Origin: a virus
Lineage: Duplodnaviria; Heunggongvirae; Uroviricota; Caudoviricetes
Reading direction: 5' to 3' (one strand)
DNA length: 30,231 nt
IMG/VR virus record: IMGVR_UViG_2695420421_000005
Shown here in pieces: positions 4,333 through 20,639 of this stretch (positions are counted from its first letter, which is position 1; every line of letters begins with the position of its first letter). Under the pieces are notes generated by a model. The model saw only the letters and a list, made by a program, of their open reading frames with translations, made no database searches and was not told the DNA's origin. Position numbers and translations under genes: made by a program.

Positions 4333-7300
4333 AGAAAGCGCCCTGCTCTTCGTAGCTGCATGAGCTATTCCCGGTAATGTATTCTCGTAACCGCCGCAGT
4401 TCATTGCTGGACAAGTGATCCATGAACTCTGTGAGGTACAGAGATGCAAACGTCATAGCTATGCTGGTTGATGACCATGATGACATAGTGGCCAGCTCCT
4501 CACCGGAAAGCGCACTCATCGCCCAGGACTCAGGAACAGCCACCGGCAATACGGCCAAAGCCTCAGAAATTACTGAATGAGGGGCGTTTTGAACCTGCTC
4601 GTTTGTGGATCGCGTTTTATCATCCATATATATATTGAGATCCAAATCGCGATCCATTTCGATGGCTGTCTTCTCGGCTTTACGCGTTTTTAGGGTTAGG
4701 CCATCTTTCTGACGCTGAACAAGAATATCCAGCATAAATGCCGCTGATTCAGGCTCAACAAAACGCAAGGTTGGACGCTTATCGCCGTCTCTGCCGCGAC
4801 GTTTACCTGTTTTAAGGCCAAGAGAGTCGCAAATGTTTTTAAACAACGCTTCCGGCACTTTAGGCTTCCCTTTTGGCGTCATAAAACCACCAATGTGCAG
4901 AACGTTATTCAACAGGTCACGGCGTTCGGCTGTCATGAGATTATCTCGAGCGAATTTGAGACGCTCCTGAGTCGCCTCGCCGGTCATAGTCTCAGGGTTG
5001 ATACCGCAGTCGATAAAGTACTGCCGGAGAGTTGCTGATTTAAGCGCATAGAAACCGCGCGCCCCGACTTCAACAGTAGGAGTAGCTTTTACCTTGTGAT
5101 CGATTATTCCAGGGAATTTAGTTTTAAAGACATCATCAGCCTGCTCGCGAGTCATCGCGGTCACTACAAAATATTGCCACTGTCCCGCCTGACGGTATGC
5201 GTAGGTAAAATTGATGGCTGCTTCTTCCCGGTCGTAACGACGAGCTGTTACCTCATCTAAAAGCATTGTTTCATAGCGGCGAACTTTGTCTCGAGCACCA
5301 TCGAAATAGAATTTCAGTGTGCCTTCTTCAACCGGTAGTTTCAGTTCGTTTTCAATATCCCAGCGGACAAGTTTTGCCTGTTCTTCAAGCGTCAGCGCGC
5401 GTTTTTTTAGCAGTTCTTCACGCTCTGATTCTTGTGGAGTTTCTGTATTGAGGTGCAGATCCAGTGTCTGTTCCCACACAATATCCCGCGCTTCTTTACG
5501 CAGATCTTTACCGATATCATTCGCAGCATAATCGGTGCCCAGCGGCGATACCTTATAACCGTCGCTGTGCATGATGCAGATCATGTTGCTGGCGTAGTCG
5601 TTACGCGCAGTCGCTTCAATTGCGGCTGCTTTAATTTTCATCCTGGTAAAGTCGGTATTGGCCACCCCCATTGATATACGGTCGCCATCGAAAATGACAT
5701 CCGTCAGTTCACCGTTCATACCTGCGGTAGCAAGCAATGCCTGGGCGAATGCTCGTTCTATTTTTTGCGGGTCAGTTTCACGTTTTGCACGAGCTTTATC
5801 AAAGCCGATAATAAATTCTTTTGCTGTACGGTCGCGGCGTAGCATTTGCACTGCGTCGCTGGGTACAACTTCACCACAGAACATGCCGAAATGACGGTCA
5901 AAATGTTTTTGCTCAATCGACACGCCGGATGAAATAGACGGGCTATAAATCAGGCCGTCGTATTTTTTGACCATCTTTTTCGGTTGATTGGTAAATGCTT
6001 CAACTTCTGGCTCTGGTTTGTTTTTCTGGTTTACACACAGAAATTTCTTACCAGGAAAATGCATTCTCAGGGTGGCTGTCACATCTTCTGCAAAGGTGGA
6101 GCTGTCGGTGGCCAACATGATTTTTTCGCCATCCGATACAGCTTTCACCACCTCGGTCATGATGCGATCTTTTTCTGTATAAAAAACCCGGATTGGCTCA
6201 CCTGTTTCGCGGTTGCGAACATCAACAGGTAATTCAATTACGTGGATCTGCAGCCATGCCGGTAAACCTAGTTCTTCACGGCGTTTCATAGCCAGTTCAG
6301 CCAGGTCAACCAGCAGATCGTTCGCATCAGCATCCACCATGATTGGGTGTTGTTCCGTTCTGGCCAGCGCGTCAATTAGCGTATTGAATACAGCCACCGG
6401 GTTTTCCATAGCCCGACCGGAAAGAACGGCACGTAGCCCTTGTGTGGCCTCGTCAAAGCCAAAATAGTCGTGCTGGCGCATCAACGGTTGCCAGCAGTTT
6501 TTAACAATCGAGTTTATGCAGATGGTCAGTTTACTGGCGTATGGAGCCATTTCCTGATAGCCAGGGTCCTGATAGTGCAGGATATCGGCTTTTACACCTT
6601 TTCCTTCAGTCATCATTTCCCACAGGCCACCAATAAGGGAAACACGGTGAGCTACAGAGATACCGCGTTCTGAGCTATGCATTAACGGTCGTAACAATCC
6701 AGTAGATTTGCCGGAACCCATACCAGCACGAACGATGACGATCCCCTGTAGTGATTGCACGTACTTCAGGACGTCATCGGTCATTACCGAAGTTTCAAAA
6801 CGCTTATAGGTGATATGTTGAGGGCGTTTATTGGGATCAGTTATGCGTTCGCTGAAAGAGCGCGGAGCCTGGGCAATACGGCACTTTTTATTCAGGCGAC
6901 GGGCAATGTGGTCTTTTACCGTAGCGCGATAGATATTTTCCAGCCCCATTTCACGCAGAACGATGCAGAACATGTTAAACAAATCTGACGGACTGTTAGG
7001 AACCGGACAGGTTAGCATGCCAATATCCACCGCTCTCAGCAGCTCTTTGGCAAAAGTACGACGGTTATCCCGCTTAATTGTCTTCAGGCGGTTGAGCGTC
7101 AGAGATAGCAAATCAGTGCCGGTTTTCAGGCGGTTTGCTGTTGCAAATAGTTGACGTGCTGTTTCACGAAGTCCACGTAGTTTGTGCAGGTCGTTGAAGT
7201 CACTGCACTCCATTTGCGGATCGTCTTCAAAAGTTGGATAGACGCAGCGGACATCGTTGAATTTCGATAAGATTTCATAGCCAGTCCGCAGGCCGGTATT

Positions 7301-8320
7301 CCCTTTTCCTTCTGTGGCTGATTTCCGGTCATTATCCAGTGCGCAGGTGATTTTTGCCGCCGGGTACATGTTTACCAGTTGTTCCACAACATGAACCATG
7401 TTGTTAGCGGATACAGCGACAACCACAGCGTCAAAGCGTTTATCTTTTTTCGTGGCAAGCCAGATGGATGCACCAGTAGCAAAACCTTCTGTAACAGCGA
7501 TGTTTTGCGCCCCTTTCAGCTCACCGATAACAAAGCAGGCACCGACGAAATCGCCGCTGGTTACTGCGCTGGTCTGGTATTTCCCACCTTGTTTGTCGAT
7601 TCGCTGCCAACCCACAATACGACCATCGTAACGACCGTCCAGGTGAGCCAGAGGGATAGCCATATATGTGGTTGGCCCCCGGTTCCATTTCGCACTGTCG
7701 TGACTGGTCACGCGACGCACATCACATGAACTAAAAACGTCACGAATACCTTTTTTAATCGCATATGGCCATGAGCCGTCTTCTGCAGGAGCATGTTCCC
7801 ACGCGCTGTGGAATGCCAGCCATCCCAGCAAACGTTCATGGTCCATTTGGTTGTTTTTCAGGTCATTAATTCGTTTTTGTTCTTCACGGCGACGACGTGC
7901 TTCGGCCTGACGTTTTATTCTTGCCCGTTCTTCTTCCGGTTGTGCGACCACGGTCGCATTATTCCGTTGTTGCTCACGGCGATATTCAGAAAACAGGAAG
8001 GAGAAACCGCTCCATGAGCCAGCATCGCTGCCTTTATGGACGAAGTTAATGAACGGGTAATCAATCCCTTTGCTGTGTTCCAGCCGGGAGTAAATTTCTA
8101 CGCGTCCTTTGAGGCTCTTTTCGAGAGCTTCTGGAGATGTTTTATTGTATGAAGAGTAACGCTCAACACCCCCGCGAGGGTTGAGTTGGATGTTGTCGGA
8201 ACAGGCAGACCAGTTGATACCAGCCATCTGTGCCAGCTCGGTTAGTTCATCCCGTGCTGCTTCAATTAGCGAGAACGGATCGCTGCCAAAGCGATCCGCA
8301 TAGAAATCGTTTAATGTCAT
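4325..8320 (-). CDS. repA: Replication protein RepA (primase-helicase), 1331 aa
   Basis: Size and position match N15 RepA (~1320 aa); Walker A motif GMGSGKST in the helicase region; sits between the telN side and the cB immunity region as in N15. Confidence 0.93.
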   Translation of the reverse strand: MTLNDFYADRFGSDPFSLIEAARDELTELAQMAGINWSACSDNIQLNPRGGVERYSSYNKTSPEALEKSLKGRVEIYSRLEHSKGIDYPFINFVHKGSDAGSWSGFSFLFSEYRREQQRNNATVVAQPEEERARIKRQAEARRRREEQKRINDLKNNQMDHERLLGWLAFHSAWEHAPAEDGSWPYAIKKGIRDVFSSCDVRRVTSHDSAKWNRGPTTYMAIPLAHLDGRYDGRIVGWQRIDKQGGKYQTSAVTSGDFVGACFVIGELKGAQNIAVTEGFATGASIWLATKKDKRFDAVVVAVSANNMVHVVEQLVNMYPAAKITCALDNDRKSATEGKGNTGLRTGYEILSKFNDVRCVYPTFEDDPQMECSDFNDLHKLRGLRETARQLFATANRLKTGTDLLSLTLNRLKTIKRDNRRTFAKELLRAVDIGMLTCPVPNSPSDLFNMFCIVLREMGLENIYRATVKDHIARRLNKKCRIAQAPRSFSERITDPNKRPQHITYKRFETSVMTDDVLKYVQSLQGIVIVRAGMGSGKSTGLLRPLMHSSERGISVAHRVSLIGGLWEMMTEGKGVKADILHYQDPGYQEMAPYASKLTICINSIVKNCWQPLMRQHDYFGFDEATQGLRAVLSGRAMENPVAVFNTLIDALARTEQHPIMVDADANDLLVDLAELAMKRREELGLPAWLQIHVIELPVDVRNRETGEPIRVFYTEKDRIMTEVVKAVSDGEKIMLATDSSTFAEDVTATLRMHFPGKKFLCVNQKNKPEPEVEAFTNQPKKMVKKYDGLIYSPSISSGVSIEQKHFDRHFGMFCGEVVPSDAVQMLRRDRTAKEFIIGFDKARAKRETDPQKIERAFAQALLATAGMNGELTDVIFDGDRISMGVANTDFTRMKIKAAAIEATARNDYASNMICIMHSDGYKVSPLGTDYAANDIGKDLRKEARDIVWEQTLDLHLNTETPQESEREELLKKRALTLEEQAKLVRWDIENELKLPVEEGTLKFYFDGARDKVRRYETMLLDEVTARRYDREEAAINFTYAYRQAGQWQYFVVTAMTREQADDVFKTKFPGIIDHKVKATPTVEVGARGFYALKSATLRQYFIDCGINPETMTGEATQERLKFARDNLMTAERRDLLNNVLHIGGFMTPKGKPKVPEALFKNICDSLGLKTGKRRGRDGDKRPTLRFVEPESAAFMLDILVQRQKDGLTLKTRKAEKTAIEMDRDLDLNIYMDDKTRSTNEQVQNAPHSVISEALAVLPVAVPESWAMSALSGEELATMSSWSSTSIAMTFASLYLTEFMDHLSSNELRRLREYITGNSSCSYEEQGAFYG
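7943..7958. repeat. sopC-like centromere-type inverted repeat TGCGACC-AC-GGTCGCA (copy 1, inside repA coding sequence)
   Basis: 7-bp inverted arms with 2-bp spacer, same architecture as the F sopC core TGGGACC-AC-GGTCCCA; five copies in this window. Confidence 0.5.
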
Positions 8321-8356
8321 TTTTTAGCCATTCCATACGAATTATGTTTTTTCGGG

Positions 8357-8385
8357 TTGAAAAAATCCGCAGGAGCAGCCACAAT
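8357..8385 (+). promoter_or_regulatory. Candidate promoter for a short plus-strand transcript antisense to the repA leader
   Basis: -35 TTGAAA (8357-8362), 17-bp spacer, -10 CACAAT (8380-8385); would give an ~80-nt RNA containing hairpin GACGG-AAT-CCGTC (8402-8414) and ending at the 8444-8471 terminator. Confidence 0.3.
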
Positions 8386-8443
8386 AAACGCATCTTGAAT
8401 TGACGGAATCCGTCGCGTTACTGTGGCTGCTTCCTGAAAAGGA

Positions 8444-8471
8444 CCCGAGTTTGCCGACTCGGGTTTTTTTT
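8444..8471. terminator. Intrinsic terminator in the repA upstream/leader region, potentially bidirectional
   Basis: Stem CCCGAGT/ACTCGGG with 6-nt loop followed by T8 on the plus strand; on the minus strand the same hairpin is followed by TCCTTTTC and lies downstream of cB and upstream of repA. Confidence 0.65.
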
Positions 8472-8565
8472 CGTCTTTTTTCTGCTGCTGTAACCTGAGT
8501 CAACCCACAGAACATATGCTCTGCATTAAACCAGATTTACAGCAAACAATAAACCCCGTATTAAG

Positions 8566-9162
8566 TCATCTACCCTCAACCATGAATGATTTGATCGTTC
8601 CGACTATTTGGTGAACAAATTCAAGATCGCTTTTCCTGAAGATGGCGCGTTGTGAATTTGTTCCGTCCAGATAGTAATTTTCATCATCAAAACGGGCCAG
8701 GCGCTGGATGGTGATATTTCCTGCAGTATCACGAACCAGAACATCCTCGCCGGGGACCAGTTCCAGCGCAGAATCGACCAGGAGAAAATCGCCAGGCTGA
8801 TAGTTTCCCTGCGCCAGATTGCTGATAGTTAACGCATAAACAGTATTGCGCTGGCTGATGAATGGCAGGAATCGCTCAGTATTTGGAACCTGTCCTGGCT
8901 TCCACTCTTCATCAGGTCCACTTTCAGTTGTGCCAATAACAGGAATGCGATCAGGGTCATATTCTGTCCCATACAGCACCCAATGCACTGGCTTGCGTAA
9001 GCATTTAGCCAGGGCAATACCTATCTCCAGTGACGGCATTACGTCGCCACGTTCTAAGTTTTGGACGCCTGCAATAGAGATATCGACAGCCTCAGCAACT
9101 TCTCGCAACGTCAGCTTCATCTCTAAACGGCGTGCTTTCAGTCGTTCGCCTCGTGTTTTCAT
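8566..9162 (-). CDS. cB: Prophage repressor CB (CI-like: N-terminal HTH plus C-terminal S24/LexA-like domain), 198 aa
   Basis: N-terminal HTH (LTLREVAEAVDISIAGVQNLERG) and C-terminal peptidase S24-like fold region; divergent from cro across an operator-containing spacer. Confidence 0.9.
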   Translation of the reverse strand: MKTRGERLKARRLEMKLTLREVAEAVDISIAGVQNLERGDVMPSLEIGIALAKCLRKPVHWVLYGTEYDPDRIPVIGTTESGPDEEWKPGQVPNTERFLPFISQRNTVYALTISNLAQGNYQPGDFLLVDSALELVPGEDVLVRDTAGNITIQRLARFDDENYYLDGTNSQRAIFRKSDLEFVHQIVGTIKSFMVEGR

Positions 9163-9184
9163 AGCTTAATCATAAATGATCTTC

Positions 9185-9226
9185 TTATAGCTGGCTATAA
9201 AATTTATTTATTATAGCTGGCTTTAA
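9185..9226. promoter_or_regulatory. Operator region between cB and cro: two 16-bp palindromic sites TTATAGCTGGCTATAA (9185-9200) and TTATAGCTGGCTTTAA (9211-9226)
   Basis: Two near-identical inverted-repeat sites 26 bp apart in the divergent intergenic region; TATAAT at 9242-9247 just upstream of the cro ATG. Confidence 0.6.
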
Positions 9227-9253
9227 TTGTTGTTTATTGTTTATAATAACAAC

Positions 9254-9475
9254 ATGAAACCAGAAGAACTTATTCGCCACTTTGGCAGTGTAGAAAAAGC
9301 AGCGGCAGGGGTAGGTGTAACACCCGGAGCTGTTTACCAATGGTTAACCGCTGGAGAGATTCCTTCATTGCGGCAAAGCGATATTGAAGTTCGTACTGCT
9401 TATAAGCTGAAGAGTGACTTTACAACTCGGCGGGTAAAGCAGTCGATTAAGGAGAGTCGTAAGCGTGGAGCTTGA
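9254..9475 (+). CDS. cro: Cro-like HTH regulator (73 aa from the ATG at 9254)
   Basis: Small basic HTH protein (HFGSVEKAAAGVGVTPGAVYQWL) divergent from the repressor gene; the ORF-track start at 9227 is TTG, the internal ATG is more plausible. Confidence 0.8.
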   Translation: MKPEELIRHFGSVEKAAAGVGVTPGAVYQWLTAGEIPSLRQSDIEVRTAYKLKSDFTTRRVKQSIKESRKRGA

Positions 9476-10175
9476 GTATATACGCAGCTGCGTCTCTACG
9501 GCATTGGCTGATGTTCATTATCGCCAGCGTGGCATTCTGGAGGTCCAGCTTGAGCAGATGCGTCTCGGTAGATCAGGACGGTTTAACAATAAACCAGTCC
9601 GGTCAATCAGTGTGGGGGATGATAACTCATACGAAGTGTCCGTTCCTGCTGAGCCGGTTAGATTCCACCAGGGGAAAACATTTAAACAATCATCAATGTT
9701 GCTCACTGATATTGATTTTCAGAGCGCCAGCTGGCGCAGGGCTATTGGTCAGTTGAATAACGAGGAATCAGCCTGGCTTTATTATTGCTACGGATGCAAG
9801 CCTGATTACAACAATGATGTGATTGTTTGTCAGTGGTTATGGCTTGATTTTCTGGTTGCTCATTCGGGGGGCGGCTTTAAAAAAATGAAGGCCTCCACGA
9901 AAAAAGCCATGCGGAAATTGATTTATTACGCGGCACAGCAGGTTAAATCAGAACTTACGTGTGCTGAGGCAGTTGATGAGAGAGAACAGGACAGGCATCT
10001 GAGTCTTCTACTGAATATATCTATTGATAGCTGGAGACAAGATTATAAAGAACGCTGGCTTTTAATTAAGTCGCGATGTCTGAGCTTAAATCGAACTGCA
10101 TTATTAAATGCGGCGGAGAAGCGCAGTGAAATCATCAAACGCCATCGGGCAGGAAGTGCCATTCTGCCTTTGTAA
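9465..10175 (+). CDS. Hypothetical protein (236 aa), positional analogue of the Q antiterminator in a cB-cro-Q arrangement
   Basis: GTG start overlapping the cro end with AAGGAGAG upstream; product assignment is by position only, no motif confirmed. Confidence 0.65.
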   Translation: MELEYIRSCVSTALADVHYRQRGILEVQLEQMRLGRSGRFNNKPVRSISVGDDNSYEVSVPAEPVRFHQGKTFKQSSMLLTDIDFQSASWRRAIGQLNNEESAWLYYCYGCKPDYNNDVIVCQWLWLDFLVAHSGGGFKKMKASTKKAMRKLIYYAAQQVKSELTCAEAVDEREQDRHLSLLLNISIDSWRQDYKERWLLIKSRCLSLNRTALLNAAEKRSEIIKRHRAGSAILPL

Positions 10176-10182
10176 ACAAGTT

Positions 10183-10428
10183 ATGTTCAGGAAACCGTCG
10201 AAGCCAGAATTAAGGTATTCGGGGGTAAGAAATGAATATGTTATCTGGTGTCCAACTTGTGGTTACAGGACACGACCAGATAGTAATAAGCAGTCTGTAA
10301 TTGCCGATTGGTATTTATCAAATCAGCCAGGTAATAAGCATATAGAAAATCTTTGGATTAAGCGTTACTTGGAAATCAGAGAGGGTGCGACCGTGGTCGC
10401 ACAAGAAAATGAAAATAACGCCATTTAA
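10183..10428 (+). CDS. Small zinc-ribbon-like protein, possibly Lar-family restriction alleviation protein (81 aa)
   Basis: CPTCG plus VIADWYLS resembles the Lar-family CPFCG...AI.AWN pattern, but only one CxxC is present; start at the internal ATG after the upstream stop. Confidence 0.4.
   Translation: MFRKPSKPELRYSGVRNEYVIWCPTCGYRTRPDSNKQSVIADWYLSNQPGNKHIENLWIKRYLEIREGATVVAQENENNAI
10386..10401. repeat. sopC-like inverted repeat TGCGACC-GT-GGTCGCA (copy 2, within the 3' end of the Lar-like ORF)
   Basis: Same 7-2-7 inverted repeat as the other copies. Confidence 0.5.
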
Positions 10429-10612
10429 GCAGGGGCCGATGACGCATGATGAAGCAGAGCGTCTTTCAGATAATTATCGGCGGCGTGGTAAGAAAGTTCT
10501 GGTTGTTCGTTCTGATTTTTTAGGTGATGGATATTGCGTTTATGTTCATTTACCTGAATCAGAAAGAACGCCAAAACCATCCAGAACATATCAACAGAAA
10601 ATTTGGGTATAG
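10409..10612 (+). CDS. Hypothetical protein (67 aa)
   Basis: ORF with internal ATG; no clear RBS; no family recognised. Confidence 0.4.
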   Translation: MKITPFKQGPMTHDEAERLSDNYRRRGKKVLVVRSDFLGDGYCVYVHLPESERTPKPSRTYQQKIWV

Positions 10613-10635
10613 ATAAACGTTGAGGAGAATTATTC

Positions 10636-11235
10636 GTGACTAATCAGATTATTTACGACAGGAAACGGTCTGATGTAATGATTGACCTTGAAACAATGGG
10701 TACTAACACATGTGCTCCAATTGTTTCTATCGGGGCAGTGTTTTTTTCTCCAGAAAATGAGGAATTAGGTCCTACTTTTTATGTGCCAGTGAATCTCAGA
10801 AGCTCGATGTTGAATGGTGGTGTCGCCGATGGTGATACCATTTTATGGTGGTTGAAACAGAGCAAGGAAGCCAGAGCCGCAATTTGTACTAATGATGCCC
10901 TTGATATTAAGGATGCACTTTTTGAATTATCACACTTTATTACTTGCCATGCATGTAATTTAAAAAAATTGAAAGTATGGGGAAATGGAGCAACGTTCGA
11001 TAATGTAATTTTACGCGGTGCTTATGAGCGCGTTGGCTTAGCCTGTCCGTGGGAATATTTTAATGATCAGGATGTTCGAACAATCGTTAATCTTGGTCAG
11101 TTTATTGGTTTTAATCCTAAAAAAGATATGCCATTTGATGGCGAACGACACAATGCCCTAGCTGATGCTATTCATCAGGCTAAATATGTATCCGCAATTT
11201 TCTCCCGTCTTGTAAAAGGTCAAGGAGAATCGTAA
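10636..11235 (+). CDS. DnaQ-like 3'-5' exonuclease (DEDDh family), 199 aa
   Basis: Exo I MIDLETMG, Exo II WGNGATFDNVIL, Exo III HNALADA motifs; GAGGAG 8 nt upstream of the GTG start. Confidence 0.8.
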   Translation: MTNQIIYDRKRSDVMIDLETMGTNTCAPIVSIGAVFFSPENEELGPTFYVPVNLRSSMLNGGVADGDTILWWLKQSKEARAAICTNDALDIKDALFELSHFITCHACNLKKLKVWGNGATFDNVILRGAYERVGLACPWEYFNDQDVRTIVNLGQFIGFNPKKDMPFDGERHNALADAIHQAKYVSAIFSRLVKGQGES

Positions 11236-11654
11236 TGGCAAAGGCTTTTACACCAGAACAGAGGGAAGAACTGAATAAACAAATTGTGGAACTCGTGCGC
11301 CTGAATGGACGAGGAACGGTTAGGCAACTTGCGGATGAAACTGGTATTAGCCGATGTGCTGTTAGTCGTTTATCAAGAGAGCTTGCTGCCAGTGGTGATT
11401 TGTATATCTCTGGCTCCGGGATATTTCTGTCTGCACAAGCACGCAAGGACTGGCAAAACGCCCGTAAAAAACTATCAAGAGTAAAGCCGAAGACATCGGT
11501 AGTGGTTGATCCAGACCTTATCTGGTCATTACCTGACGGAGAAATACGTCGTTACGACAGGCGCTTGAACATGATTTGTCACGATTGCCGGAAAAGTGAA
11601 GTTATGCAGCGTGTGCTGGCTTTTTATCAGGGAAATTTTCAGGAGGTGGCGTAG
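11235..11654 (+). CDS. Putative HTH DNA-binding protein (139 aa)
   Basis: Probable winged-helix segment VRQLADETGISRCAVSRLSRELAASGDL; start overlaps the upstream stop. Confidence 0.7.
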   Translation: MAKAFTPEQREELNKQIVELVRLNGRGTVRQLADETGISRCAVSRLSRELAASGDLYISGSGIFLSAQARKDWQNARKKLSRVKPKTSVVVDPDLIWSLPDGEIRRYDRRLNMICHDCRKSEVMQRVLAFYQGNFQEVA

Positions 11655-11944
11655 TGAATATCGACACCACGATAACGATCGATACGGCCCTAAATACCGG
11701 TCTGGCACTTCTCGGTTGGCTTTACATCATGTCCCGTGCATGGCGATGGCTTGGTTCCATTTTTCTAAAACAGTGGAAAAAACGGCGCAAACAGGAGAGA
11801 CGCCAGAAAGCGTTAGAGGCGTTCTATGACGCATTTGAACTTAGCCGCATTGAGCCTGGAACAACAGCCAGGATAGCGACAAAAGGTGACCTGATGATAG
11901 TGATGTTCCGACAGGAGAGAGCAGAGAAAGGAGAATCAGCATGA
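11654..11944 (+). CDS. Small membrane protein (96 aa)
   Basis: Hydrophobic helix ALNTGLALLGWLYIM followed by a basic KKRRKQERRQK stretch; GTG start overlapping the upstream stop. Confidence 0.55.
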   Translation: MNIDTTITIDTALNTGLALLGWLYIMSRAWRWLGSIFLKQWKKRRKQERRQKALEAFYDAFELSRIEPGTTARIATKGDLMIVMFRQERAEKGESA

Positions 11945-12675
11945 AATTTTCCAAATTTTCTGAGTTGGTGAATCGCATTTTGTCCAACAACCATAGCCAT
12001 CATCGCGATATGGATGTAACGATCGTTGTTCATTCGCCTGGTCGCATCGGTTCAACACCATCAGTTGAGGTTCAGTCAATTCAGGCGGGTTTTGATTGGG
12101 ATTCCGGGAAAGTGCTTATTTTCCCAGCACAGCCACTGACCACGCTAACACCAGAACAGATTACTGATATTACTGATAGTGTGCGCAAAGGTCAGTCTTG
12201 GCACGCATATCAGGAATATAAAAAGCATAAAGAGCAGTTGGAAAAATTGTCGATTGAACTGGATGCTGCAAAACAGCGCGTAGCAGAACTGGAAGCCAAA
12301 CCTGTAAGCCAAACTTACAAGTTAACTTTTGAGCAATGGCTGGAACAGCAGCATGACAAAATTGATGTTGATTGTGGATGTGTAAGTACTGAAATGTTTA
12401 TGCACTGGATAAGGGTCGCGTATGAGGCTGGCAACTATCCGGTAACTCCGGATGGTTGGATAAGCTGTAGTGAGCGAATGCCTGAAAAGGGCCAGAACGT
12501 GCTTATTTCGGTGAATTTCGATAGCTCTCTGGTTGAACCGCTAATATGCTCCGCACGCTATACCGGAAGCACCTTTCGGCGCGGAGATGCAACGATTAAG
12601 CCGGGTAATGCTATTGAGCAAGCAACTCACTGGATGCCGCTACCAGAACCTCCGCAGGAGTCGAAGAGTGAATAA
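11941..12675 (+). CDS. DUF551-like phage protein (244 aa)
   Basis: C-terminal region (PDGWISCSERMPEKGQNVLI...WMPLPEPP) resembles DUF551; ATGA overlap with the upstream gene. Confidence 0.75.
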   Translation: MKFSKFSELVNRILSNNHSHHRDMDVTIVVHSPGRIGSTPSVEVQSIQAGFDWDSGKVLIFPAQPLTTLTPEQITDITDSVRKGQSWHAYQEYKKHKEQLEKLSIELDAAKQRVAELEAKPVSQTYKLTFEQWLEQQHDKIDVDCGCVSTEMFMHWIRVAYEAGNYPVTPDGWISCSERMPEKGQNVLISVNFDSSLVEPLICSARYTGSTFRRGDATIKPGNAIEQATHWMPLPEPPQESKSE

Positions 12676-12889
12676 AGCAGAGTTATTTCAGAAAATATCG
12701 GCTCTCGCGACTGAATGCCACGCTATAGCATCTGAGCTTGATGTTGGCGATGAACGAACCGAGATGTTCGAAATATACAGTGTGCTGCGCAATCTCTGTC
12801 GGCGTGGCTACGCCACTCAAGTAGGGCGAATGACTAACCCACTACTCTCATCCTGTGATGAGGATGACTCGGATGAGGATGACGAATGA
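12668..12889 (+). CDS. Hypothetical acidic-tailed protein (73 aa from GTG)
   Basis: GTG start with GGAG ~9 nt upstream; C-terminus DEDDSDEDDE; overlaps flanking genes in operon-like fashion. Confidence 0.45.
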   Translation: MNKAELFQKISALATECHAIASELDVGDERTEMFEIYSVLRNLCRRGYATQVGRMTNPLLSSCDEDDSDEDDE

Positions 12890-13416
12890 TGCATAAAGCA
12901 GTAGCCGGTGAGTTTCAGAAGGAAGTCGATAATACTACCGTTCTATTGGACGATATTTTAAGCATTCTCGCGCTGCTTGAGGCTGGCGATTGGTCAGAAC
13001 ATTGCACTAAAACAGAGCTAGGCGGTCGGCTTGAAAGAGAGATTACACGACTTATTGGTGATGCGCAGGAAGCCACTGTCACTGGCTATGAGTTAATCGC
13101 TGAAGCCTGGCGTTTGATGGATGGACAAGACCCTAAAACCAGCGATTGGCATAGCAAGGCGTCGAAGTATTTAAATTCCAATATTGTAGAAAAAGTTGAT
13201 GATGACCGTATTGAGGCCGTTAAGGCTGTGTTGCGTAGGTTGGCTGGCAACTCTCCGGTAACTCCGGATGGTCATGTTCAGTTTTCTGTTTCACTTCCTG
13301 CAGCGTTTGGTGGAGATAAATATTTTATTGATGGTGTATTTCAACCTTTGAGATATGAGCGTGACTGTGAAAAAGCGGTTGTGGCCGCTGGCGGTGTAGT
13401 TAATTGGGTTAAGTAA
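12886..13416 (+). CDS. Hypothetical protein (176 aa) sharing the AGN(Y/S)PVTPDG segment with the upstream DUF551 gene
   Basis: ATGA-coupled ORF; ~32-nt near-identical segment at 13245-13276 versus 12428-12459. Confidence 0.7.
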   Translation: MMHKAVAGEFQKEVDNTTVLLDDILSILALLEAGDWSEHCTKTELGGRLEREITRLIGDAQEATVTGYELIAEAWRLMDGQDPKTSDWHSKASKYLNSNIVEKVDDDRIEAVKAVLRRLAGNSPVTPDGHVQFSVSLPAAFGGDKYFIDGVFQPLRYERDCEKAVVAAGGVVNWVK

Positions 13417-13431
13417 TTTTCAGGAGGATTT

Positions 13432-13758
13432 ATGGCGCTGACACCGGCAGAACGGCAAAGGAGACGCAGGGAACGGTTGAAGAAGGAAGGCACATCAAGA
13501 CGGGACTGGATTTTGGAGCCTGACGAGTTACGTATGTTGGGGGAAATTTGTGTATTGCGTAGACCAGGGCGAGTTCCATATTCGGAGAACGAAGTCATTG
13601 GTTTGCTGATCAGGAAAAACTATAAGGAGCTGCAGAAGCAGCTATCTACTACTTGCCCGCGATGTGGTCAAAAAATGCCTGTTTCAGAATGCATTTTTGA
13701 TGGCGAAGGGTCATGCCACCTTACAACCACGAGGCTGAAACTTGCGCTCAAAGCGTGA
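13432..13758 (+). CDS. Hypothetical protein (108 aa), arginine-rich N-terminus and Cys-containing C-terminus
   Basis: CAGGAGG RBS 6 nt upstream of ATG; MALTPAERQRRRRERLKKEG basic region. Confidence 0.7.
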   Translation: MALTPAERQRRRRERLKKEGTSRRDWILEPDELRMLGEICVLRRPGRVPYSENEVIGLLIRKNYKELQKQLSTTCPRCGQKMPVSECIFDGEGSCHLTTTRLKLALKA

Positions 13759-13768
13759 CTGGTCACGG
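13753..13768. repeat. Palindrome GCGTGACTGGTCACGG, inverted copy of the 3018-3033 palindrome
   Basis: 15 of 16 positions are the reverse complement of the site at 3018-3033; overlaps the stop codon of the upstream gene and precedes the RBS of the next. Confidence 0.5.
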
Positions 13769-13776
13769 AGGGATAA

Positions 13777-14019
13777 ATGGATAAAAAGGCATTGCTTTTT
13801 GAAATGATACGAAAACGGAGCGAAAAGAGCTTTTCTGATGGTGGTGATGGGTTTGTTTTCGCTTCTATGCTTGCTTTTGATGTTGGGTTAAATAGCAGAA
13901 TTGTTAAAAGGATGCTTGATTCTGCTGTCCGTGATGGGCTTTTGGAAGTGGTTGGGCGAGGAGTAGGAAGGGAACATAAGTATCGGACTACAAAGATATT
14001 TAACCAGTTAATCTATTGA
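13777..14019 (+). CDS. Hypothetical protein (80 aa)
   Basis: GGAGGG RBS upstream of ATG; no family recognised. Confidence 0.65.
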   Translation: MDKKALLFEMIRKRSEKSFSDGGDGFVFASMLAFDVGLNSRIVKRMLDSAVRDGLLEVVGRGVGREHKYRTTKIFNQLIY

Positions 14020-14045
14020 AAGTTGGCTATAAAATTTGAGTTTTA

Positions 14046-14065
14046 CCCTGTAATTTTATACAGTA
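14046..14065. promoter_or_regulatory. LexA (SOS) box CCCTGTAATTTTATACAGTA
   Basis: CTGT-N8-ACAG with an AT-rich spacer and ACAGTA end, matching the E. coli LexA consensus; overlaps a possible -10 (TACAGT) 17 bp after TTGAGT; preceded by GGCTATAAAATTT also found at the cB/cro operator. Confidence 0.6.
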
Positions 14066-14087
14066 TCAAATAACCTTTTTTAATTAA

Positions 14088-14306
14088 ATGGTATTAGATT
14101 CAATGACTGAAGCACCTGTATCAACTCTTGAAGAACTCGGATCAAACCTAAAAGACATCGACGCCGTTTTGGATCTGGTTAGCGTTGCTCTGGCTTCTCC
14201 AGAAGCCAGCTTGCATCTTGGCGAGATTTCACGACTTGTTAGTATGTCGCGGGAGATTGCTCAGAATTGCCAACAAGTTATTGCTGTTGAGTGTTTACAT
14301 CATTGA
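14088..14306 (+). CDS. Small acidic protein (72 aa; alternative start at 14103), candidate SOS-regulated antirepressor
   Basis: First ORF downstream of the LexA box; product assignment is inference by analogy with the N15 LexA-controlled antirepressor. Confidence 0.5.
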   Translation: MVLDSMTEAPVSTLEELGSNLKDIDAVLDLVSVALASPEASLHLGEISRLVSMSREIAQNCQQVIAVECLHH

Positions 14307-14349
14307 TATACACCCCGCCCTTCTGGACGGGGTAGCGAAAAGGGTCTAA

Positions 14350-14637
14350 TCAATAGACGGCATTAATATTAATCGTTGCACCGCATGCTTGGGCATATTT
14401 TGATAAAGTTTTCATGCTTGCCCCTAAAGGATTGCTTTCCAGGCGGCTGATAGCTGACGGGCGCAATCCCATTCGTTCAGCCAGAGCTGACTTCGTTAAA
14501 CCTGCTCTTTCCCTCATTTCGTATAACATTTCGACCATCTCCAGCTCTTTATCGGCCTCTTCATATCCTTTGATGGCTTCTGGAGTGTTGAGAAGTTTTT
14601 CTTTTACTTCGTTAAACGGGATGCCTTTCGCTTTCAT
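14350..14637 (-). CDS. HTH XRE-family antitoxin (HigA-like), 95 aa
   Basis: HTH segment LTKSALAERMGLRPSAISRLE; start overlaps the toxin stop by 1 nt; toxin-first gene order typical of higBA. Confidence 0.85.
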   Translation of the reverse strand: MKAKGIPFNEVKEKLLNTPEAIKGYEEADKELEMVEMLYEMRERAGLTKSALAERMGLRPSAISRLESNPLGASMKTLSKYAQACGATININAVY

Positions 14638-14948
14638 CAGTTCATCTCCTTCAGGCGAGTTCTGGCGATTTCGATAGCCTTCACCGGTGTTTTCTGTGTC
14701 TTTTTTACAAATGCATGCAATAGATAAATTTCGTTACCAGTCGCGTAGGCGTACAGCGTTCTTGCGATGTTTTTATCCCCTACTCGTAGTTCAAAAAGCC
14801 CTCCACCTATTACACGGCTATGGGGCATCTTCAGTTTGTTGCCTTCTTTCTCCAGTCGCTCAATTAATCTGGTCATGCGACCTCGCAAATCATCTGGTAG
14901 TTCAAGCAGTTCATCCAGTGCTGCAGGGTGGGTTATCACGTTAAACAT
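14637..14948 (-). CDS. RelE/ParE-superfamily toxin (HigB/Gp49-like), 103 aa
   Basis: Conserved IGGGLFELRVGDKNIARTLYAY core typical of HigB/Gp49-like toxins; GGAGG 9 nt upstream of ATG. Confidence 0.85.
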   Translation of the reverse strand: MFNVITHPAALDELLELPDDLRGRMTRLIERLEKEGNKLKMPHSRVIGGGLFELRVGDKNIARTLYAYATGNEIYLLHAFVKKTQKTPVKAIEIARTRLKEMN

Positions 14949-15006
14949 ATTATAGCCTCCATATCCATAAAATACACCAAAACAAGAAAACAGCGCAAAT
15001 TAAAAA

Positions 15007-15024
15007 TTTCACTAAAAAGTGAAA
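15007..15024. promoter_or_regulatory. Palindrome TTTCACT-AAAA-AGTGAAA upstream of the toxin-antitoxin operon (candidate autoregulatory operator)
   Basis: Perfect 7-bp inverted arms ~60 bp upstream of the toxin start on the transcribed side. Confidence 0.45.
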
Positions 15025-15113
15025 AATAACACTGGATGTGTTCGTTTGGCAGAGTTACAGTTCGTGTCATTGAGGGGCAATAACCAACTAACTATATGAA
15101 TTTGGAGGATATT

Positions 15114-15335
15114 ATGAATTATCAAGGTAACGAAAAAATGCGCGACGACGTTGCGGAGATAGCTAACGAACTGTATGAGTTGTGGCAGAAGGTTGAACGT
15201 TTCGAAAAGGAATATGGTTTCAACAGTACCAACCTAGCAGACCGACTGGCTGGTCGCTTAGTTGGGACTATGGGGCCAAAACTGGCTGAGTTGAACCGCT
15301 TTATGGCTGATGTTGATTTCCAGTTTCAAGATTGA
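15114..15335 (+). CDS. Hypothetical protein (73 aa from ATG 15114)
   Basis: GGAGG 6 nt upstream of the internal ATG; no family recognised. Confidence 0.6.
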   Translation: MNYQGNEKMRDDVAEIANELYELWQKVERFEKEYGFNSTNLADRLAGRLVGTMGPKLAELNRFMADVDFQFQD

Positions 15336-15348
15336 TTAGAGAGGCGTT

Positions 15349-15576
15349 ATGAATATTAATGAAATTCGTGGAAATATGACTGAAGCGGCCCTGAGTGTGG
15401 AATGTGTTATGCGTGGATACCCACGCATTTCCCTGAAAGAGTTAAGCGAAGCCTGTTTTTTGAGTCAAGCTGCCGTTGAATTTATCATCGAACAGATGAT
15501 CTGTTTTGGGGTTGCAAAGCGTAGCGGGTCTGGTCGATATTCTTTGACCGATGAATATAAGCAGGCAACTTTCTAA
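15349..15576 (+). CDS. Hypothetical protein (75 aa), possible winged-helix
   Basis: GAGAGG RBS upstream; no family confirmed. Confidence 0.65.
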   Translation: MNINEIRGNMTEAALSVECVMRGYPRISLKELSEACFLSQAAVEFIIEQMICFGVAKRSGSGRYSLTDEYKQATF

Positions 15577-15582
15577 AAACTG

Positions 15583-15598
15583 TGCGACCACGGTCGCA
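15583..15598. repeat. sopC-like inverted repeat TGCGACC-AC-GGTCGCA (copy 3, intergenic)
   Basis: Same motif, 7 nt after the stop of the upstream gene. Confidence 0.5.
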
Positions 15599-15685
15599 CA
15601 GCACAAAAACGAAAAAGCTTGGCAAAATGACGGTTTTTAGTTATTGTTTTGTTAAGTTGGGTTTTTTGTACCCAACAGCCAACAA

Positions 15686-15709
15686 GCCGCCTTTATGGCG
15701 GTTTTTTTG
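15686..15709 (+). terminator. Intrinsic terminator (short GC stem plus T7)
   Basis: GCCGCC-TTTAT-GGCGG followed by TTTTTTT. Confidence 0.5.
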
Positions 15710-15724
15710 TGCCTGAAAAGTGGG

Positions 15725-15752
15725 CGCAGGACAAGTTGCAGCTTGTCCTGCG
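15725..15752. repeat. Strong 11-bp stem hairpin CGCAGGACAAG-TTGCAG-CTTGTCCTGCG
   Basis: Perfect inverted repeat without a following T-run, upstream of the methyltransferase gene. Confidence 0.5.
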
Positions 15753-15795
15753 GTCAACCCATGCCAGAGCTATAGGCTGAACCTAAAGCCCACCC

Positions 15796-15809
15796 GCGAT
15801 GCGCATCGC
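15796..15809. promoter_or_regulatory. Perfect 14-bp palindrome GCGATGCGCATCGC ~35 bp upstream of the methyltransferase start
   Basis: Self-complementary sequence read directly; function unknown. Confidence 0.4.
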
Positions 15810-15843
15810 CGGGTTAGCTTACCCAGGCAAAAAAATAATAGCT

Positions 15844-16920
15844 ATGTTCAAAACCACTAATATTCATGGCGCACAACTCGTTTGCGCAGATTCTCTGCAA
15901 TTTATCAAAACCATCCCTGATAACTCGGTCAATTTGATTGCAACAGACCCACCATACTTCGGCGTAAAGGCTAACGCATGGGATAACCAGTGGGATAGCG
16001 ATGCTGACTTTTTGGGGTGGATTGACGAATTTTTGGCAGAATTTTGGCGGATATTGGCCCCTAATGGCAGCCTGTATATGTTTACCGGCTCTCGCCTTGC
16101 GTCAAAAATTGAATTATTAACTCGCGACCGTTTCAATGTTCTGAACCATATTATTTGGGCTAAACCCAGTGGTATGTGGCGCGGTTGTCATAAAGAAAGT
16201 TTAAGGGCTTATTTTCCTGCTACTGAAAGAATATTATTTGCAGAGCATTACGGCGCGTCAGGTTATGCTAAAGGTCAGTCAGGTTATGCTTCAAAATGTG
16301 CAGATTTAAGAAAAAATATTTTTTCTCCACTAATTGATGCTTTTTCGCTGGCTCGCCGTCAGTTAGATATATCAGCCGCAGACATTAATTCAGCGACAGG
16401 AAAGCAGATGTGTTCACACTGGTTTTCTTATTCGCAGTGGCGGCTTCCATCATTAATTGATTTTAATAAACTATGCGAATTATTTCGCAGGAAGGCAGAT
16501 TCACTCGGTGTCCCGTGTCCATATCCTTTTAATGTTGATTATTCAGAACATGAAAAGCGTTATAGCGATCTGAAATTGCATTATGAGGAAGTAAAGAAGC
16601 AGTATGATGATTTGAAGGCTCAGTATGAAAATTTACGCCGTCCATTTCATGTTACTGCTGATGTACCTTATACCGATGTATGGGAGTTTCCTCCTGTGCA
16701 ATATTATCCTGGCAAGCACCCATGTGAAAAACCTGCAGCGATGATGGAACATATTATAAAGAGTAGTTCACGCCCCGGAGATATCGTTGCCGATTTCTTT
16801 ATGGGATCAGGCTCAACTATTAAAGCTGCGCTGAAGTTAGGACGTCAGGCAATAGGTATTGAGATTGAGGGCGAACGTTATCTTCAGACAGTTGATGAAG
16901 TGAAAAAGTTATTTGAGTAA
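15844..16920 (+). CDS. DNA methyltransferase, beta-class N6-adenine/N4-cytosine type (358 aa)
   Basis: N-terminal DPPY motif (LIATDPPYFGV) and C-terminal AdoMet-binding FFMGSGST in beta-class order; the ORF-track start at 15799 runs through the palindrome, the ATG at 15844 is more likely. Confidence 0.85.
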   Translation: MFKTTNIHGAQLVCADSLQFIKTIPDNSVNLIATDPPYFGVKANAWDNQWDSDADFLGWIDEFLAEFWRILAPNGSLYMFTGSRLASKIELLTRDRFNVLNHIIWAKPSGMWRGCHKESLRAYFPATERILFAEHYGASGYAKGQSGYASKCADLRKNIFSPLIDAFSLARRQLDISAADINSATGKQMCSHWFSYSQWRLPSLIDFNKLCELFRRKADSLGVPCPYPFNVDYSEHEKRYSDLKLHYEEVKKQYDDLKAQYENLRRPFHVTADVPYTDVWEFPPVQYYPGKHPCEKPAAMMEHIIKSSSRPGDIVADFFMGSGSTIKAALKLGRQAIGIEIEGERYLQTVDEVKKLFE

Positions 16921-16934
16921 CTGGAGAATATATT

Positions 16935-16963
16935 CCCCTGCCGTTTTTGGTAGGGGTTATTTT
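16935..16963 (+). terminator. Intrinsic terminator after the methyltransferase gene
   Basis: Stem CCCCTGCC/GGTAGGGG with loop GTTTTT followed by TTATTTT. Confidence 0.6.
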
Positions 16964-17015
16964 CGCCATATAGTTTCCAAGCCGAAACCTCAGCAACTAT
17001 TGCGAGGTAAGAGAT

Positions 17016-17288
17016 ATGAAGATGGATGAACGATACAGCAGTGCATCTTATGGTAGCGCTGGTCTTGCTGCGTTCTTTGCCAGCCTGTCATTGCAGGATT
17101 GGGGCTTCATTATCGGTGTCGCGTTCAGCATTATCCTCGGTGTGCTTACATACCGGCTCAATAAACGCGAGCAGATGAAGCGCACGAAGATATTGCAGGA
17201 CATATTGGATAAAACTAATACCAATAATCTTTCTGCTACAGCGATGGTTATTGGAGAGCTGGGGAAGAGAGCACCGAAGGAAATATGA
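17016..17288 (+). CDS. Holin with dual-start motif (MKM...), 90 aa
   Basis: Starts ATG-AAG-ATG as in lambda S; two hydrophobic segments; immediately upstream of and overlapping the endolysin gene. Confidence 0.7.
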
Positions 17289-17785
17289 TGCAGTCATCAT
17301 TACGCAAAGCTGTCACAGCTGCTATTGGTGGCGGGGCTATTGCCATAGCGTCTATGCTCATCACTGGCCCAAGTGGTAACGATGGTCTGGAAGGTGTCAG
17401 TTACATACCATACAAAGATATTGTTGGCGTATGGACTGTATGTTACGGACACACTGGAAAAGACATCATGCTAGGTAAAACGTATACCGAAGCAGAATGC
17501 AAAGCTCTCCTGAATAAAGACCTTGCCACTGTCGCCAGACAAATTAACCCGTACATCAAAGTCGATATACCGGAAACAACGCGCGGCGCTCTTTACTCGT
17601 TCGTTTACAACGTGGGCGCTGGTAATTTCAGAACATCGACGCTTCTTCGCAAAATAAACCAGGGCGATATCAAAGGCGCATGTGATCAGCTACGTCGCTG
17701 GATATCTGCTGGCGGTAAGCAATGGAAAGGCCTGATGACTCGTCGTGAGATTGAGCGTGAAGTCTGTTTGTGGGGTCAACAATGA
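17285..17785 (+). CDS. R: SAR endolysin (phage 21 R21-like lysozyme with N-terminal signal-arrest-release domain), 166 aa
   Basis: N-terminal weakly hydrophobic Gly/Ala-rich SAR segment [18 protein letters not shown] and close resemblance to phage 21 R as I recall it. Confidence 0.9.
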
Positions 17786-18219
17786 GCAGGGTAACCGCGA
17801 TTATCTCCGCTCTGGTTATTTGCATCATCGTCTGCCTGTCGTGGGCTGTTAATCATTACCGTGATAACGCCATCGCCTACAAAGAGCAGCGCGATAAAGC
17901 CACATCCACAATCGCTGATATGCAGAAGCGTCAACGTGACGTAGCAGAACTCGATGCCAGATATACAAAGGAGCTTGCTGATGCTAACGCGACTATCGAA
18001 AGCCTCCGTGCTGATGTTTCTGCTGGGCGTAAGCGCCTGCAAGTCGCCGCCACCTGTGCAAAGTCAACGACCGGAGCCAGCGGCATGGGCAATGGAGAAA
18101 GCCCAAGACTTACAGCAGATGCTGAACTCAATTATTACCGTCTCCGAAGTGGGATCGACAGGATAACTGCGCAGGTTAACTACTTGCAGGAATACATCAA
18201 GACGCAATGCCTGAATTAA
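17782..18219 (+). CDS. Rz: i-spanin Rz (145 aa)
   Basis: N-terminus [31 protein letters not shown] as in lambda Rz; ATGA overlap with the endolysin gene. Confidence 0.9.
17981..18166 (+). CDS. Rz1: o-spanin Rz1 lipoprotein embedded in Rz (+1 frame), ~61 aa
   Basis: Signal peptide with lipobox-like ...LLGVSAC, proline-rich mature region; AAGGAG 7 nt upstream of ATG 17981 (the ORF track also allows 17954). Confidence 0.75.
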
Positions 18220-18260
18220 TCCCTCTGTATCAAAAACGAGCTCAATTTGTTGGATAGTGA

Positions 18261-18572
18261 ATGAAAATTTATATTGCCGGGCCAATGACGGGATATGAGA
18301 ACTTTAATCGTGACGCCTTTAATAAAGAGGCAGATCGTTTGTCACGACATGGTCACTCTGTCTTGAATCCAGCCACTTTGCCTAATGGTCTGACACAACG
18401 TGAATACATGGATATTTGCTTTGCAATGCTTCGTTGTGCTGATGCTATTTTGATGCTTCCTGGCTGGAAAGCGTCTGCTGGAGCAACTGCTGAGTATCAT
18501 TACGCATACAAGATGGAGATGCCGGTATTCACTACGCTGAATTACCCGCCAGCTTGTTCCTCTGTAGCATAA
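18261..18572 (+). CDS. DUF4406-like protein (nucleoside 2-deoxyribosyltransferase-like fold), 103 aa
   Basis: N-terminus MKIYIAGPMTGYENFNRDAF typical of DUF4406 proteins found near phage lysis genes. Confidence 0.65.
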   Translation: MKIYIAGPMTGYENFNRDAFNKEADRLSRHGHSVLNPATLPNGLTQREYMDICFAMLRCADAILMLPGWKASAGATAEYHYAYKMEMPVFTTLNYPPACSSVA

Positions 18573-18592
18573 AAATCTCTTTGTTTCTCGTT

Positions 18593-18608
18593 TGCGACCG
18601 TGGTCGCA
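18593..18608. repeat. sopC-like inverted repeat TGCGACC-GT-GGTCGCA (copy 4)
   Basis: Same motif, immediately left of direct repeat A. Confidence 0.5.
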
Positions 18609-18619
18609 CATTAAATACC

Positions 18620-18795
18620 GCGCTGCATCGTCGCCGTATTTCCGCATTAACCATGACCGTAGCCCGACGGGGAACTCCTCTGCGCGAGTGTGCGGAAATA
18701 ATCAAAAACGATGCACACCGGGTTTTTACCGCGCTAATGATTCGCGGGTTTGTCCCTCATGCTCGCCAGTCCTGTGCGAGGGTGGAAGAAACAGG
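18620..18795 (+). repeat. Direct repeat A (~176 bp), ~90% identical to repeat B at 20405-20581
   Basis: Aligned by eye: long identical blocks (GAGTGTGCGG.AATAATCAAAAACGATGCACACCGGGTTTTTACCGCG; CCCTCATGCTCGCCAGTCCTGTGCGAGGGTGGAAGAAAC) with a short variable segment near the 5' end. Confidence 0.75.
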
Positions 18796-18812
18796 GCATG
18801 TATTCAGGAGCG

Positions 18813-18828
18813 TGCGACCGTGGTCGCA
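18813..18828. repeat. sopC-like inverted repeat TGCGACC-GT-GGTCGCA (copy 5)
   Basis: Same motif, immediately right of direct repeat A and 25 bp upstream of the gene X start. Confidence 0.5.
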
Positions 18829-18852
18829 CGGTATCTTTGTCAGGAGGTTTTG

Positions 18853-20581: not shown

Positions 20582-20639
20582 ATATTAATGCAAGTGATAA
20601 ACATTCTCATTTTCTCGGGTCCTTTCCGGCGATCTGACA

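Follow-up and report, generated by a model that had tools for sequence, protein, structure and literature searches.

The four inverted repeats (IR1 to IR4) that N15, a linear plasmid-prophage, carries are said to have been described as SopB-binding centromere sites by Ravin and Lane in 1999 and by Grigoriev and Lobocka in 2001, and partitioning sites of phage phiKO2 were reportedly described by Casjens and colleagues in 2004. Grigoriev and Lobocka reportedly also discussed a regulatory role for the N15 sites. The subject here is a palindrome with the arms and spacing of these sites, TGCGACC-NN-GGTCGCA (TGCGACCNNGGTCGCA), that occurs in a 30,231-nucleotide stretch of viral DNA (IMG/VR record IMGVR_UViG_2695420421_000005), referred to below at its full length as the window. 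Very probably, the five copies of the palindrome in the window serve an N15-like SopABC partition system (type Ia) as its centromere (parS/IR) sites. We favor this interpretation because the copies are identical to validated N15 sites, because they occupy orthologous positions, because sopAB co-occurs with them in relatives, and because the residues that determine specificity are conserved in the SopB of these relatives.

For N15, the arms of IR1 to IR4 are GTGCGACC and GGTCGCAC, and they enclose the spacers AC (IR1), TC (IR2), AT (IR3) and AC (IR4) (PMC7205306, Table 4). Lane and colleagues built an artificial N15 centromere by joining the four natural IRs, and N15 SopB foci form on such an IR1-4 array (PMC7205306). 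Linear pJAZZ plasmids with the N15 repA centromere site are lost at a rate below 0.1 % per generation when sopAB is supplied in trans (PMC2847241). The centromeres of N15 and F differ by one nucleotide per half-site, and the DNA specificity of N15 SopB is held in residues 179-200 (PMC2910045). In the N15 genome, the sites are found at 33480 in gene 37 (repA), at 35931 after gene 40 (Q), at 41125, past gene 51, with the annotated late -35 following 22 bp on, and at 45562 between genes 58 and 59. The RefSeq sequence of N15 (NC_001901) reads AGCGACCACGGTCGCA at 33480, with A for T at the first base, whereas the published IR1 oligonucleotide has TGCGACC at this place (PMC7205306, Table 4); either a natural imperfect site was idealized in the oligonucleotide, or there is a sequence discrepancy. 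The phiKO2 RefSeq record (NC_005857) contains four features labeled "putative plasmid partitioning site" at the corresponding places, all of them GTGCGACCACGGTCGCAC.

An exact search of the window finds the palindrome at 7943, 10386, 15583, 18593 and 18813, the five positions that a model had listed in an earlier, sequence-only reading of this DNA. Base composition predicts 8.5e-5 copies per window, and 100 dinucleotide-preserving shuffles of the window did not contain a single one. Together, these two results rule out a chance origin and confirm that the five-copy pattern is real and far above chance. The window has no additional degenerate sites at two or fewer mismatches and no enrichment of single half-sites, of which there are just two, at 14876 and 12040. 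The spacers of the five copies are AC or GT, which are reverse complements of each other, and all five are therefore one 16-mer, TGCGACCACGGTCGCA, present in either orientation. At four of the five sites, a G...C extension lengthens the palindrome to 18 bp. Distances between the sites range from 0.2 to 5 kb, and Tandem Repeats Finder reports no tandem array of 43-bp repeats in the window. The sites, with the orientation of the 16-mer, are as follows.

7943 to 7958, plus orientation: IR1-equivalent site inside repA, codons 121-126 (first 380 nt), exact match to the 16-mer.
10386 to 10401, minus orientation: IR2-equivalent site, 211 bp past the stop of the Q antiterminator gene, exact match.
15583 to 15598, plus orientation: IR3-equivalent site, 7 bp after a gp51-like gene, with the late-promoter -35 lying 21 bp downstream, exact match.
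18593 to 18608, minus orientation: left site of the IR4 zone, 21 bp after the DUF4406 (N15 gp57-like) gene, exact match.
18813 to 18828, minus orientation: right site of the IR4 zone, 25 bp upstream of a 286-amino-acid open reading frame (ORF) and at the right end of copy A of a lambdoid segment, exact match.

Three of these sites are at places orthologous to those of N15 and phiKO2, namely in repA, after Q and before the late promoter. The first copy does lie in repA (minus strand, 4325-8320), as had been claimed, and reads N-A-T-V-V-A in the repA frame; it is orthologous to IR1 of N15 (33480) and to the phiKO2 site at 37905, with flanks that are 73-80 % identical and arms that are kept. The second is orthologous to IR2 of N15 (35931) and to phiKO2 40345, with a left flank that is 74-82 % identical, all 14 of 14 arm bases conserved, and a spacer that reads GT in the window, TC in N15 and AC in phiKO2. 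The identity of the Q gene is confirmed by Pfam. This second copy had been placed inside a Lar-like ORF, at the codons for EGATVVAQ. An ORF at 10108-10428 indeed reads ...EGATVVAQ... across the site, but its designation, like the reality of the ORF itself, is uncertain: the match to Lar is sub-threshold (21.1 bits against a cut-off of 28.6) and spans residues 18-68, with the site outside the matched stretch. In the RefSeq/GenBank annotation of close relatives, the site is intergenic. The third copy aligns with N15 41125 and phiKO2 45385. In all three genomes, the conserved late-promoter -35 (TTGGCA) lies 21-22 bp downstream of it, and the spacing to the downstream terminator CCGCC...GGCGGTTTTTTT is also equal; in the window, the late promoter is at 15619-15647. 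The fourth zone is filled by two copies in a rearranged context. The proposal of dispersed SopB-binding sites in the style of N15 is thus well founded, with arms identical to those of N15 IR1-4 throughout and with homologous flanks and spacing for IR1 to IR3.

Around IR1 to IR3, the flanks are only 62-82 % identical to those in N15 and phiKO2, while the 14 arm bases are invariant. The 2-bp spacer changes, at times even in its orientation. Such a combination of fixed arms, unconstrained spacer and divergent flanks points to recognition by a dimeric, sequence-specific DNA-binding protein rather than to an RNA hairpin. The alternative, RNA hairpins or intrinsic terminators that share their sequence by coincidence, has some observations in its favor. 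Four of the five sites follow just after a gene end, a consensus scan flags 18811-18830 as a weak terminator-like hairpin (8-bp stem, 4-nt loop, tail GTATCTTTGT), and the N15 record labels 45560-45584, the place of IR4, as a putative rho-independent terminator. However, this weak T-rich tail is present at just one of the five sites and the other four have no T-run, one site is internal to the repA reading frame, and a different hairpin, conserved and located at 15684-15704, is the true late terminator. Moreover, the arms are conserved in N15, phiKO2 and the present lineage without compensatory changes, the spacer that would correspond to the loop varies, and the flanks diverge by 20-35 %. The sites do not conform to the description of an intrinsic terminator, a GC-rich hairpin with a U-tract at the end of a transcription unit, and Rfam has no match at any of the five. 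We regard coincidental RNA hairpins as highly improbable.

The conserved positions also bear on a different interpretation, according to which the sites are mainly silencing operators for repA, the region after Q and the late promoter, bound by SopB or by another DNA-binding protein of the phage, with partition as a secondary role. With respect to regulatory landmarks, IR1 to IR3 have conserved positions in three diverged genomes: IR1 is within the first 380 nt of repA, IR2 comes after Q, and IR3 precedes the late -35 by 21-22 bp in every case. SopB is also established as a protein that spreads and silences in the manner of ParB (PMC7205306). The centromere function of the N15 IRs, however, is experimentally established (PMC7205306, PMC2847241). 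In addition, the sites of the IR4 zone are off the conserved regulatory positions and vary in number, and no other candidate binder has been identified. Silencing as the main role therefore seems very unlikely to us; an operator role would more fittingly be added to partition than set against it. With three sites at conserved regulatory places (the 5' part of repA, after Q, before the late promoter), bound SopB may in addition keep down replication and the expression of late genes in the prophage.

The partition genes have to be sought in relatives. Sequence comparison identifies the window as part of an N15-like linear plasmid-prophage of Escherichia (genus Ravinvirus, PhiR46_1/YDC107_1 lineage). 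It is 97 % identical to the Escherichia phages PhiR46_1 and YDC107_1 of this genus, and the closest records in the phage, E. coli genome and plasmid collections are 97-98 % identical, none of them an exact match; the lineage includes dozens of 46-48 kb plasmids from E. coli, E. fergusonii, E. albertii and S. sonnei. Identity to N15 and phiKO2 is about 75 % at the nucleotide level over repA, the immunity region and Q. The 30-kb window itself is devoid of sopAB, as the sequence-only reading had noted, and the same reading had made its case depend on a SopB gene elsewhere on the replicon. Five of the six plasmid-prophage records that we fetched (96-98 % identical) carry sopA-sopB beside the tel site, four of them complete and one truncated: PhiR46_1, the MARGA_3 plasmid, pZ1323HEC0355-3, an E. 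fergusonii plasmid and an E. albertii plasmid. The sixth, from S. sonnei (42 kb), stops before the sopAB region. If the source is organized like its relatives, the operon would start some 0.4 kb outside the left edge of the window, which opens within telRL. The same five sites recur in PhiR46_1 and in the E. coli MARGA_3 plasmid, and neither replicon (about 46-47 kb) has any further copy.

The proteins of PhiR46_1 and MARGA_3 pass the NCBIfam equivalog cut-offs for SopA (NF010259) and SopB (NF010252), and their SopB is 73-75 % identical to that of N15 and phiKO2. The specificity region reads GNVK(S/A)LAEAE(G/N)(V/I)DRNII(S/T)RCIN in the relatives and GNVKALAEAEGIDRNIVNRCMN in N15, and the recognition helix within it is DRNII(S/T)RC in the relatives, DRNIVNRC in N15 and SRKIITRC in F. 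The DRNI..R helix, the arginine of the ELSAR motif (equivalent to F R219) and the GSRRRK box in the N-terminal domain are all conserved in the SopB of the relatives; in F, R219 is essential for centromere binding (PMC3597684). This conservation suggests that the SopB proteins of the relatives and of N15 have identical DNA specificity.

The comparison with N15 and F suggests how the locus would work. A dimer of SopB, a protein of the ParB family, would bind each 16-bp site, with one helix-turn-helix per 7-bp arm and the conserved arginine outside the helix-turn-helix making an additional contribution. Each site would be a loading point from which SopB spreads to form the partition complex, and SopA, a Walker-type ATPase on the nucleoid, would then place sister plasmids on either side of the division plane. 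One site would probably be enough, which would make the copies redundant. For the replicon from which the window stems, SopB is accordingly predicted, by homology, to bind all five sites and to spread from them.

All five copies had been assigned to the N15-like part of the window. This is correct for the first three, but the copies at 18593 and 18813 bracket a lambdoid segment that borders the lambda-like late region. The segment is present twice.

18620 to 18806, plus strand: copy A of the lambdoid "pre-cos" segment, 187 bp, between the two IR4-zone sites.
20405 to 20592, plus strand: copy B of the segment, at its usual place upstream of cos, with no IR in the window.

The two copies are direct repeats, 88-91 % identical and 1786 bp apart. 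Of 5426 complete E. coli genomes, 3181 contain the segment, with lambdoid prophages of the chromosome as its location in nearly all cases. Between the copies are two ORFs, 18853-19713 (286 amino acids) and 19839-20288 (149 amino acids), neither with a Pfam match; together with the repeats, they look like a cassette inserted by recombination between the repeats. We considered the 286-amino-acid ORF as a homolog of gp59 of N15 and phiKO2 and rejected it (E = 2.3 and 14), so that orthology to IR4 rests only on the upstream DUF4406 gene. The product of this gene is 83 % identical to N15 gp57 and has a weak, sub-threshold Pfam match to the nucleoside 2-deoxyribosyltransferase family.

Among plasmids that are 96-98 % identical, the zone between the DUF4406 gene and Nu1 contains one to three sites. 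pZ1323HEC0355-3 has the left IR alone (the equivalent of 18593; four sites in total), the E. fergusonii plasmid has its zone IR just after the pre-cos copy (four in total), the S. sonnei plasmid has the right IR and a pre-cos IR (five in total), and the E. albertii plasmid has the pair and a pre-cos IR (six in total). In the last three, GTGCGACCGTGGTCGCACG directly follows the pre-cos copy, about 90 bp upstream of cosN; in the window, a stretch of about 60 bp is replaced around 20595-20630, where these relatives hold the pre-cos IR. Six sites are present in the Klebsiella phage 48ST307; two of them, at 15133 and 15180, are 47 bp from each other, and another, at 27548, is in the region of the capsid genes. 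As the relatives carry four to six sites, five is a normal number for the family. Several N15-sized IMG/VR contigs also contain multiple exact copies of the 16-mer (up to five). One IMG/VR contig of 62 kb (UViG_2667527966_000002) has nine, which may be a real high number or an artefact of an inverted-duplication assembly; the YDC107_1 record repeats the telN-repA arm in inverted orientation.

The variability of this zone raises the possibility that the copies at 18593 and 18813 are passive scars of lambdoid module exchange, and that IR1 to IR3 alone matter. The pair brackets the widespread segment that is duplicated at 20405-20592, homology to other phages starts or stops at the IRs or within about a dozen bases of them, the one to three zone copies of the relatives are differently arranged, and the same junction is present in chromosomal prophages without N15-type sopB. 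Both copies, however, match the functional consensus perfectly (16/16), so that SopB should bind them regardless of their origin. N15 and phiKO2 keep IR4 in the zone, and every plasmid relative examined retains at least one site there. We give hardly any weight to the idea that the two copies are scars and nothing else, although it may describe where the pair came from.

Copies of the palindrome also occur away from N15-type partition genes. A total of 44 E. coli genomes contain the junction of the segment with GTGCGACCGTGGTCGCACG, 15 times on plasmids and 33 times on chromosomes, whereas N15-type sopB is detected in only 15 E. coli genomes and there essentially always on plasmid-prophages. 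About 30 E. coli chromosomes that lack N15-type sopB have the exact palindrome in integrated lambdoid prophages, always where phage homology breaks; examples are the chromosomes NZ_CP027550 (locus positions 4194-4209) and NZ_CP178648 (locus positions 6410 and 6630). In an ordinary integrated lambdoid prophage with the order Rha, segment, IR, nohD/terminase, homology to the window ends right after the IR. Isolated lambda-like phages have the sequence that lies to the right of the IR but not the IR itself. In strain VTB96815v, a chromosomal prophage holds both members of a pair of the 18593/18813 type, and strain Z1323HEC0355 has a chromosomal copy together with an N15-like plasmid. The window itself is 96-98 % identical to chromosomal prophages between 17.3 and 25 kb. 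To judge from these alignments, the palindrome marks mosaic junctions and travels with late-gene modules that are exchanged between phage-plasmids and integrated prophages.

Most simply, the orphan copies without a cognate SopB are passive. It is conceivable, but in our view unlikely, that the palindrome does more than serve as a plasmid centromere: the identical 18-bp palindromes might be preferred crossover points that drive late-module exchange, or the chromosomal copies might be functional decoys or handles that titrate or recruit the SopB of an incoming or co-resident N15-like plasmid. If the latter were true, it would imply partition-based incompatibility or cross-regulation between prophages, and Z1323HEC0355 would be an example of a carrier.

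Several points weigh against the assignment of the five palindromes as centromere sites. As copies exist without N15-type sopB, the palindrome alone is not proof of function. The IR4 zone is freely gained and lost among relatives with four to six sites, and use of the pair at 18593 and 18813 as partition sites is a prediction. So are SopB binding and plasmid stabilization in this particular phage, for which the literature support comes from N15 itself (PMC7205306, PMC2847241). The specificity region of SopB in the relatives differs from that of N15 at 5 of 22 positions. Finally, it is from the relatives that sopAB is predicted for the source replicon, right beyond the edge of the window. We nevertheless maintain that centromere sites of the N15 kind account best for the five palindromes.

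In the window as a whole, telRL is followed by protelomerase (with Pfam TelK domains), a RepA of 1331 amino acids and the cB/cro/Q region, then by a RelE/ParE pair, a methylase, lysis genes, cos at 20647 and lambda-like terminase, head and tail genes. Positions 1-42 are the complete 42-bp telRL palindrome ACATAATTCCCCATTATACGCGCGTATAATGGGGAATTATGT, centered between bases 21 and 22. The source record must therefore cross an uncut telomere-resolution site, as in a circular or virion-type assembly, unlike the PhiR46_1 record, which ends at the hairpin. Two Rfam matches reach the gathering score, C4 antisense RNA at 2774-2860 (minus strand, 73.6 bits) and the Hfq-binding RNA isrK at 2886-2959 (minus strand, 62.8 bits). 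They are direct neighbors between telN and repA, in the antirepressor (icd/ant-like) region, a secondary immunity locus in the style of P1 and N15. A 26-bp repeat, TTATAGCTGGCTATAAAAGTTATTTA, is present in two copies at 9185-9238 in the cB-cro intergenic region; by analogy with the annotation at the equivalent place of N15, these are probably operators of the CB repressor. A cosN-like sequence, GGGCGGAAGGCG, at 20647-20658 is followed by a lambda-like cosB, and this end is neither that of lambda, GGGCGGCGACCT, nor that of N15, GGGCGGCGTCCG.

What we describe is a known system (N15 1999-2001, phiKO2 2004) in a new relative, without a new mechanism, and the variations seen here, a fifth copy from module shuffling and a uniform spacer, are minor. 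The practical gain is that five centromere sites can be annotated in a common, poorly annotated lineage of linear plasmid-prophages of Escherichia and Shigella; none of the fetched records of this lineage marks centromere sites. The 16-mer is a simple marker for the N15 partition type. The site sequence of N15 and three of its four positions are conserved across the telomere phages of Escherichia and Klebsiella, while the fourth zone turns over. Mildly new biology comes from the orphan copies, which document at mosaic junctions the recent exchange of modules between phage-plasmids and chromosomal prophages.

Among the described systems, N15 is the closest. The window shares with it the arms TGCGACC and GGTCGCA, the 7-2-7 layout, the dispersal over the left arm of a linear plasmid-prophage and three orthologous site positions, and in the relatives sopAB is at the opposite end beside the telomere site, as in N15. 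The differences are five copies instead of four, a single spacer (AC/GT) instead of AC, TC and AT, and a rearranged fourth zone with two copies around a lambdoid segment and unrelated downstream genes. Nucleotide identity of the left arm is about 75 %, and the SopB of the relatives is 74 % identical. phiKO2 has the same 18-bp sequence and the same first three positions, and its fourth site follows gp58, which is annotated as a nucleoside 2-deoxyribosyltransferase and is the positional counterpart of the DUF4406 gene of the window. It differs in having a single fourth site, HK97-like rather than lambda-like structural genes, and a Klebsiella host.

The resemblance to F sopC, with which the palindrome had been compared at the outset, extends to the architecture and not to the type. 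In both cases, a 16-bp 7-2-7 palindrome with a common central ...GACC-NN-GGTC... is the known or, here, predicted target of a homologous SopB, and the conserved arginine that contacts the G next to the spacer in F (R219) is present in the SopB of the relatives. The F core, TGGGACCACGGTCCCA (TGGGACC...GGTCCCA; PMC2910045), however, carries G and C at positions 3 and 14, respectively, where the sites of the window have C and G. In F, about 10-12 tandem 43-bp repeats are located directly downstream of sopB, and F SopB is non-functional with N15 sites. The F-type core is absent from the window, from PhiR46_1 and from N15, and with C and G at positions 3 and 14 and no tandem array, we reject membership in the F type. 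The chromosomal multi-site parS of Bacillus and Pseudomonas ParB differ from the sites described here in the clade of the ParB protein (type Ia plasmid SopB for the window), in replicon type and in consensus (tGTTNCACGTGNAACa; PMC3597684). They nonetheless have the same overall arrangement, several identical 16-bp palindromes over tens of kb, some of them intragenic, with each copy a loading site for ParB.

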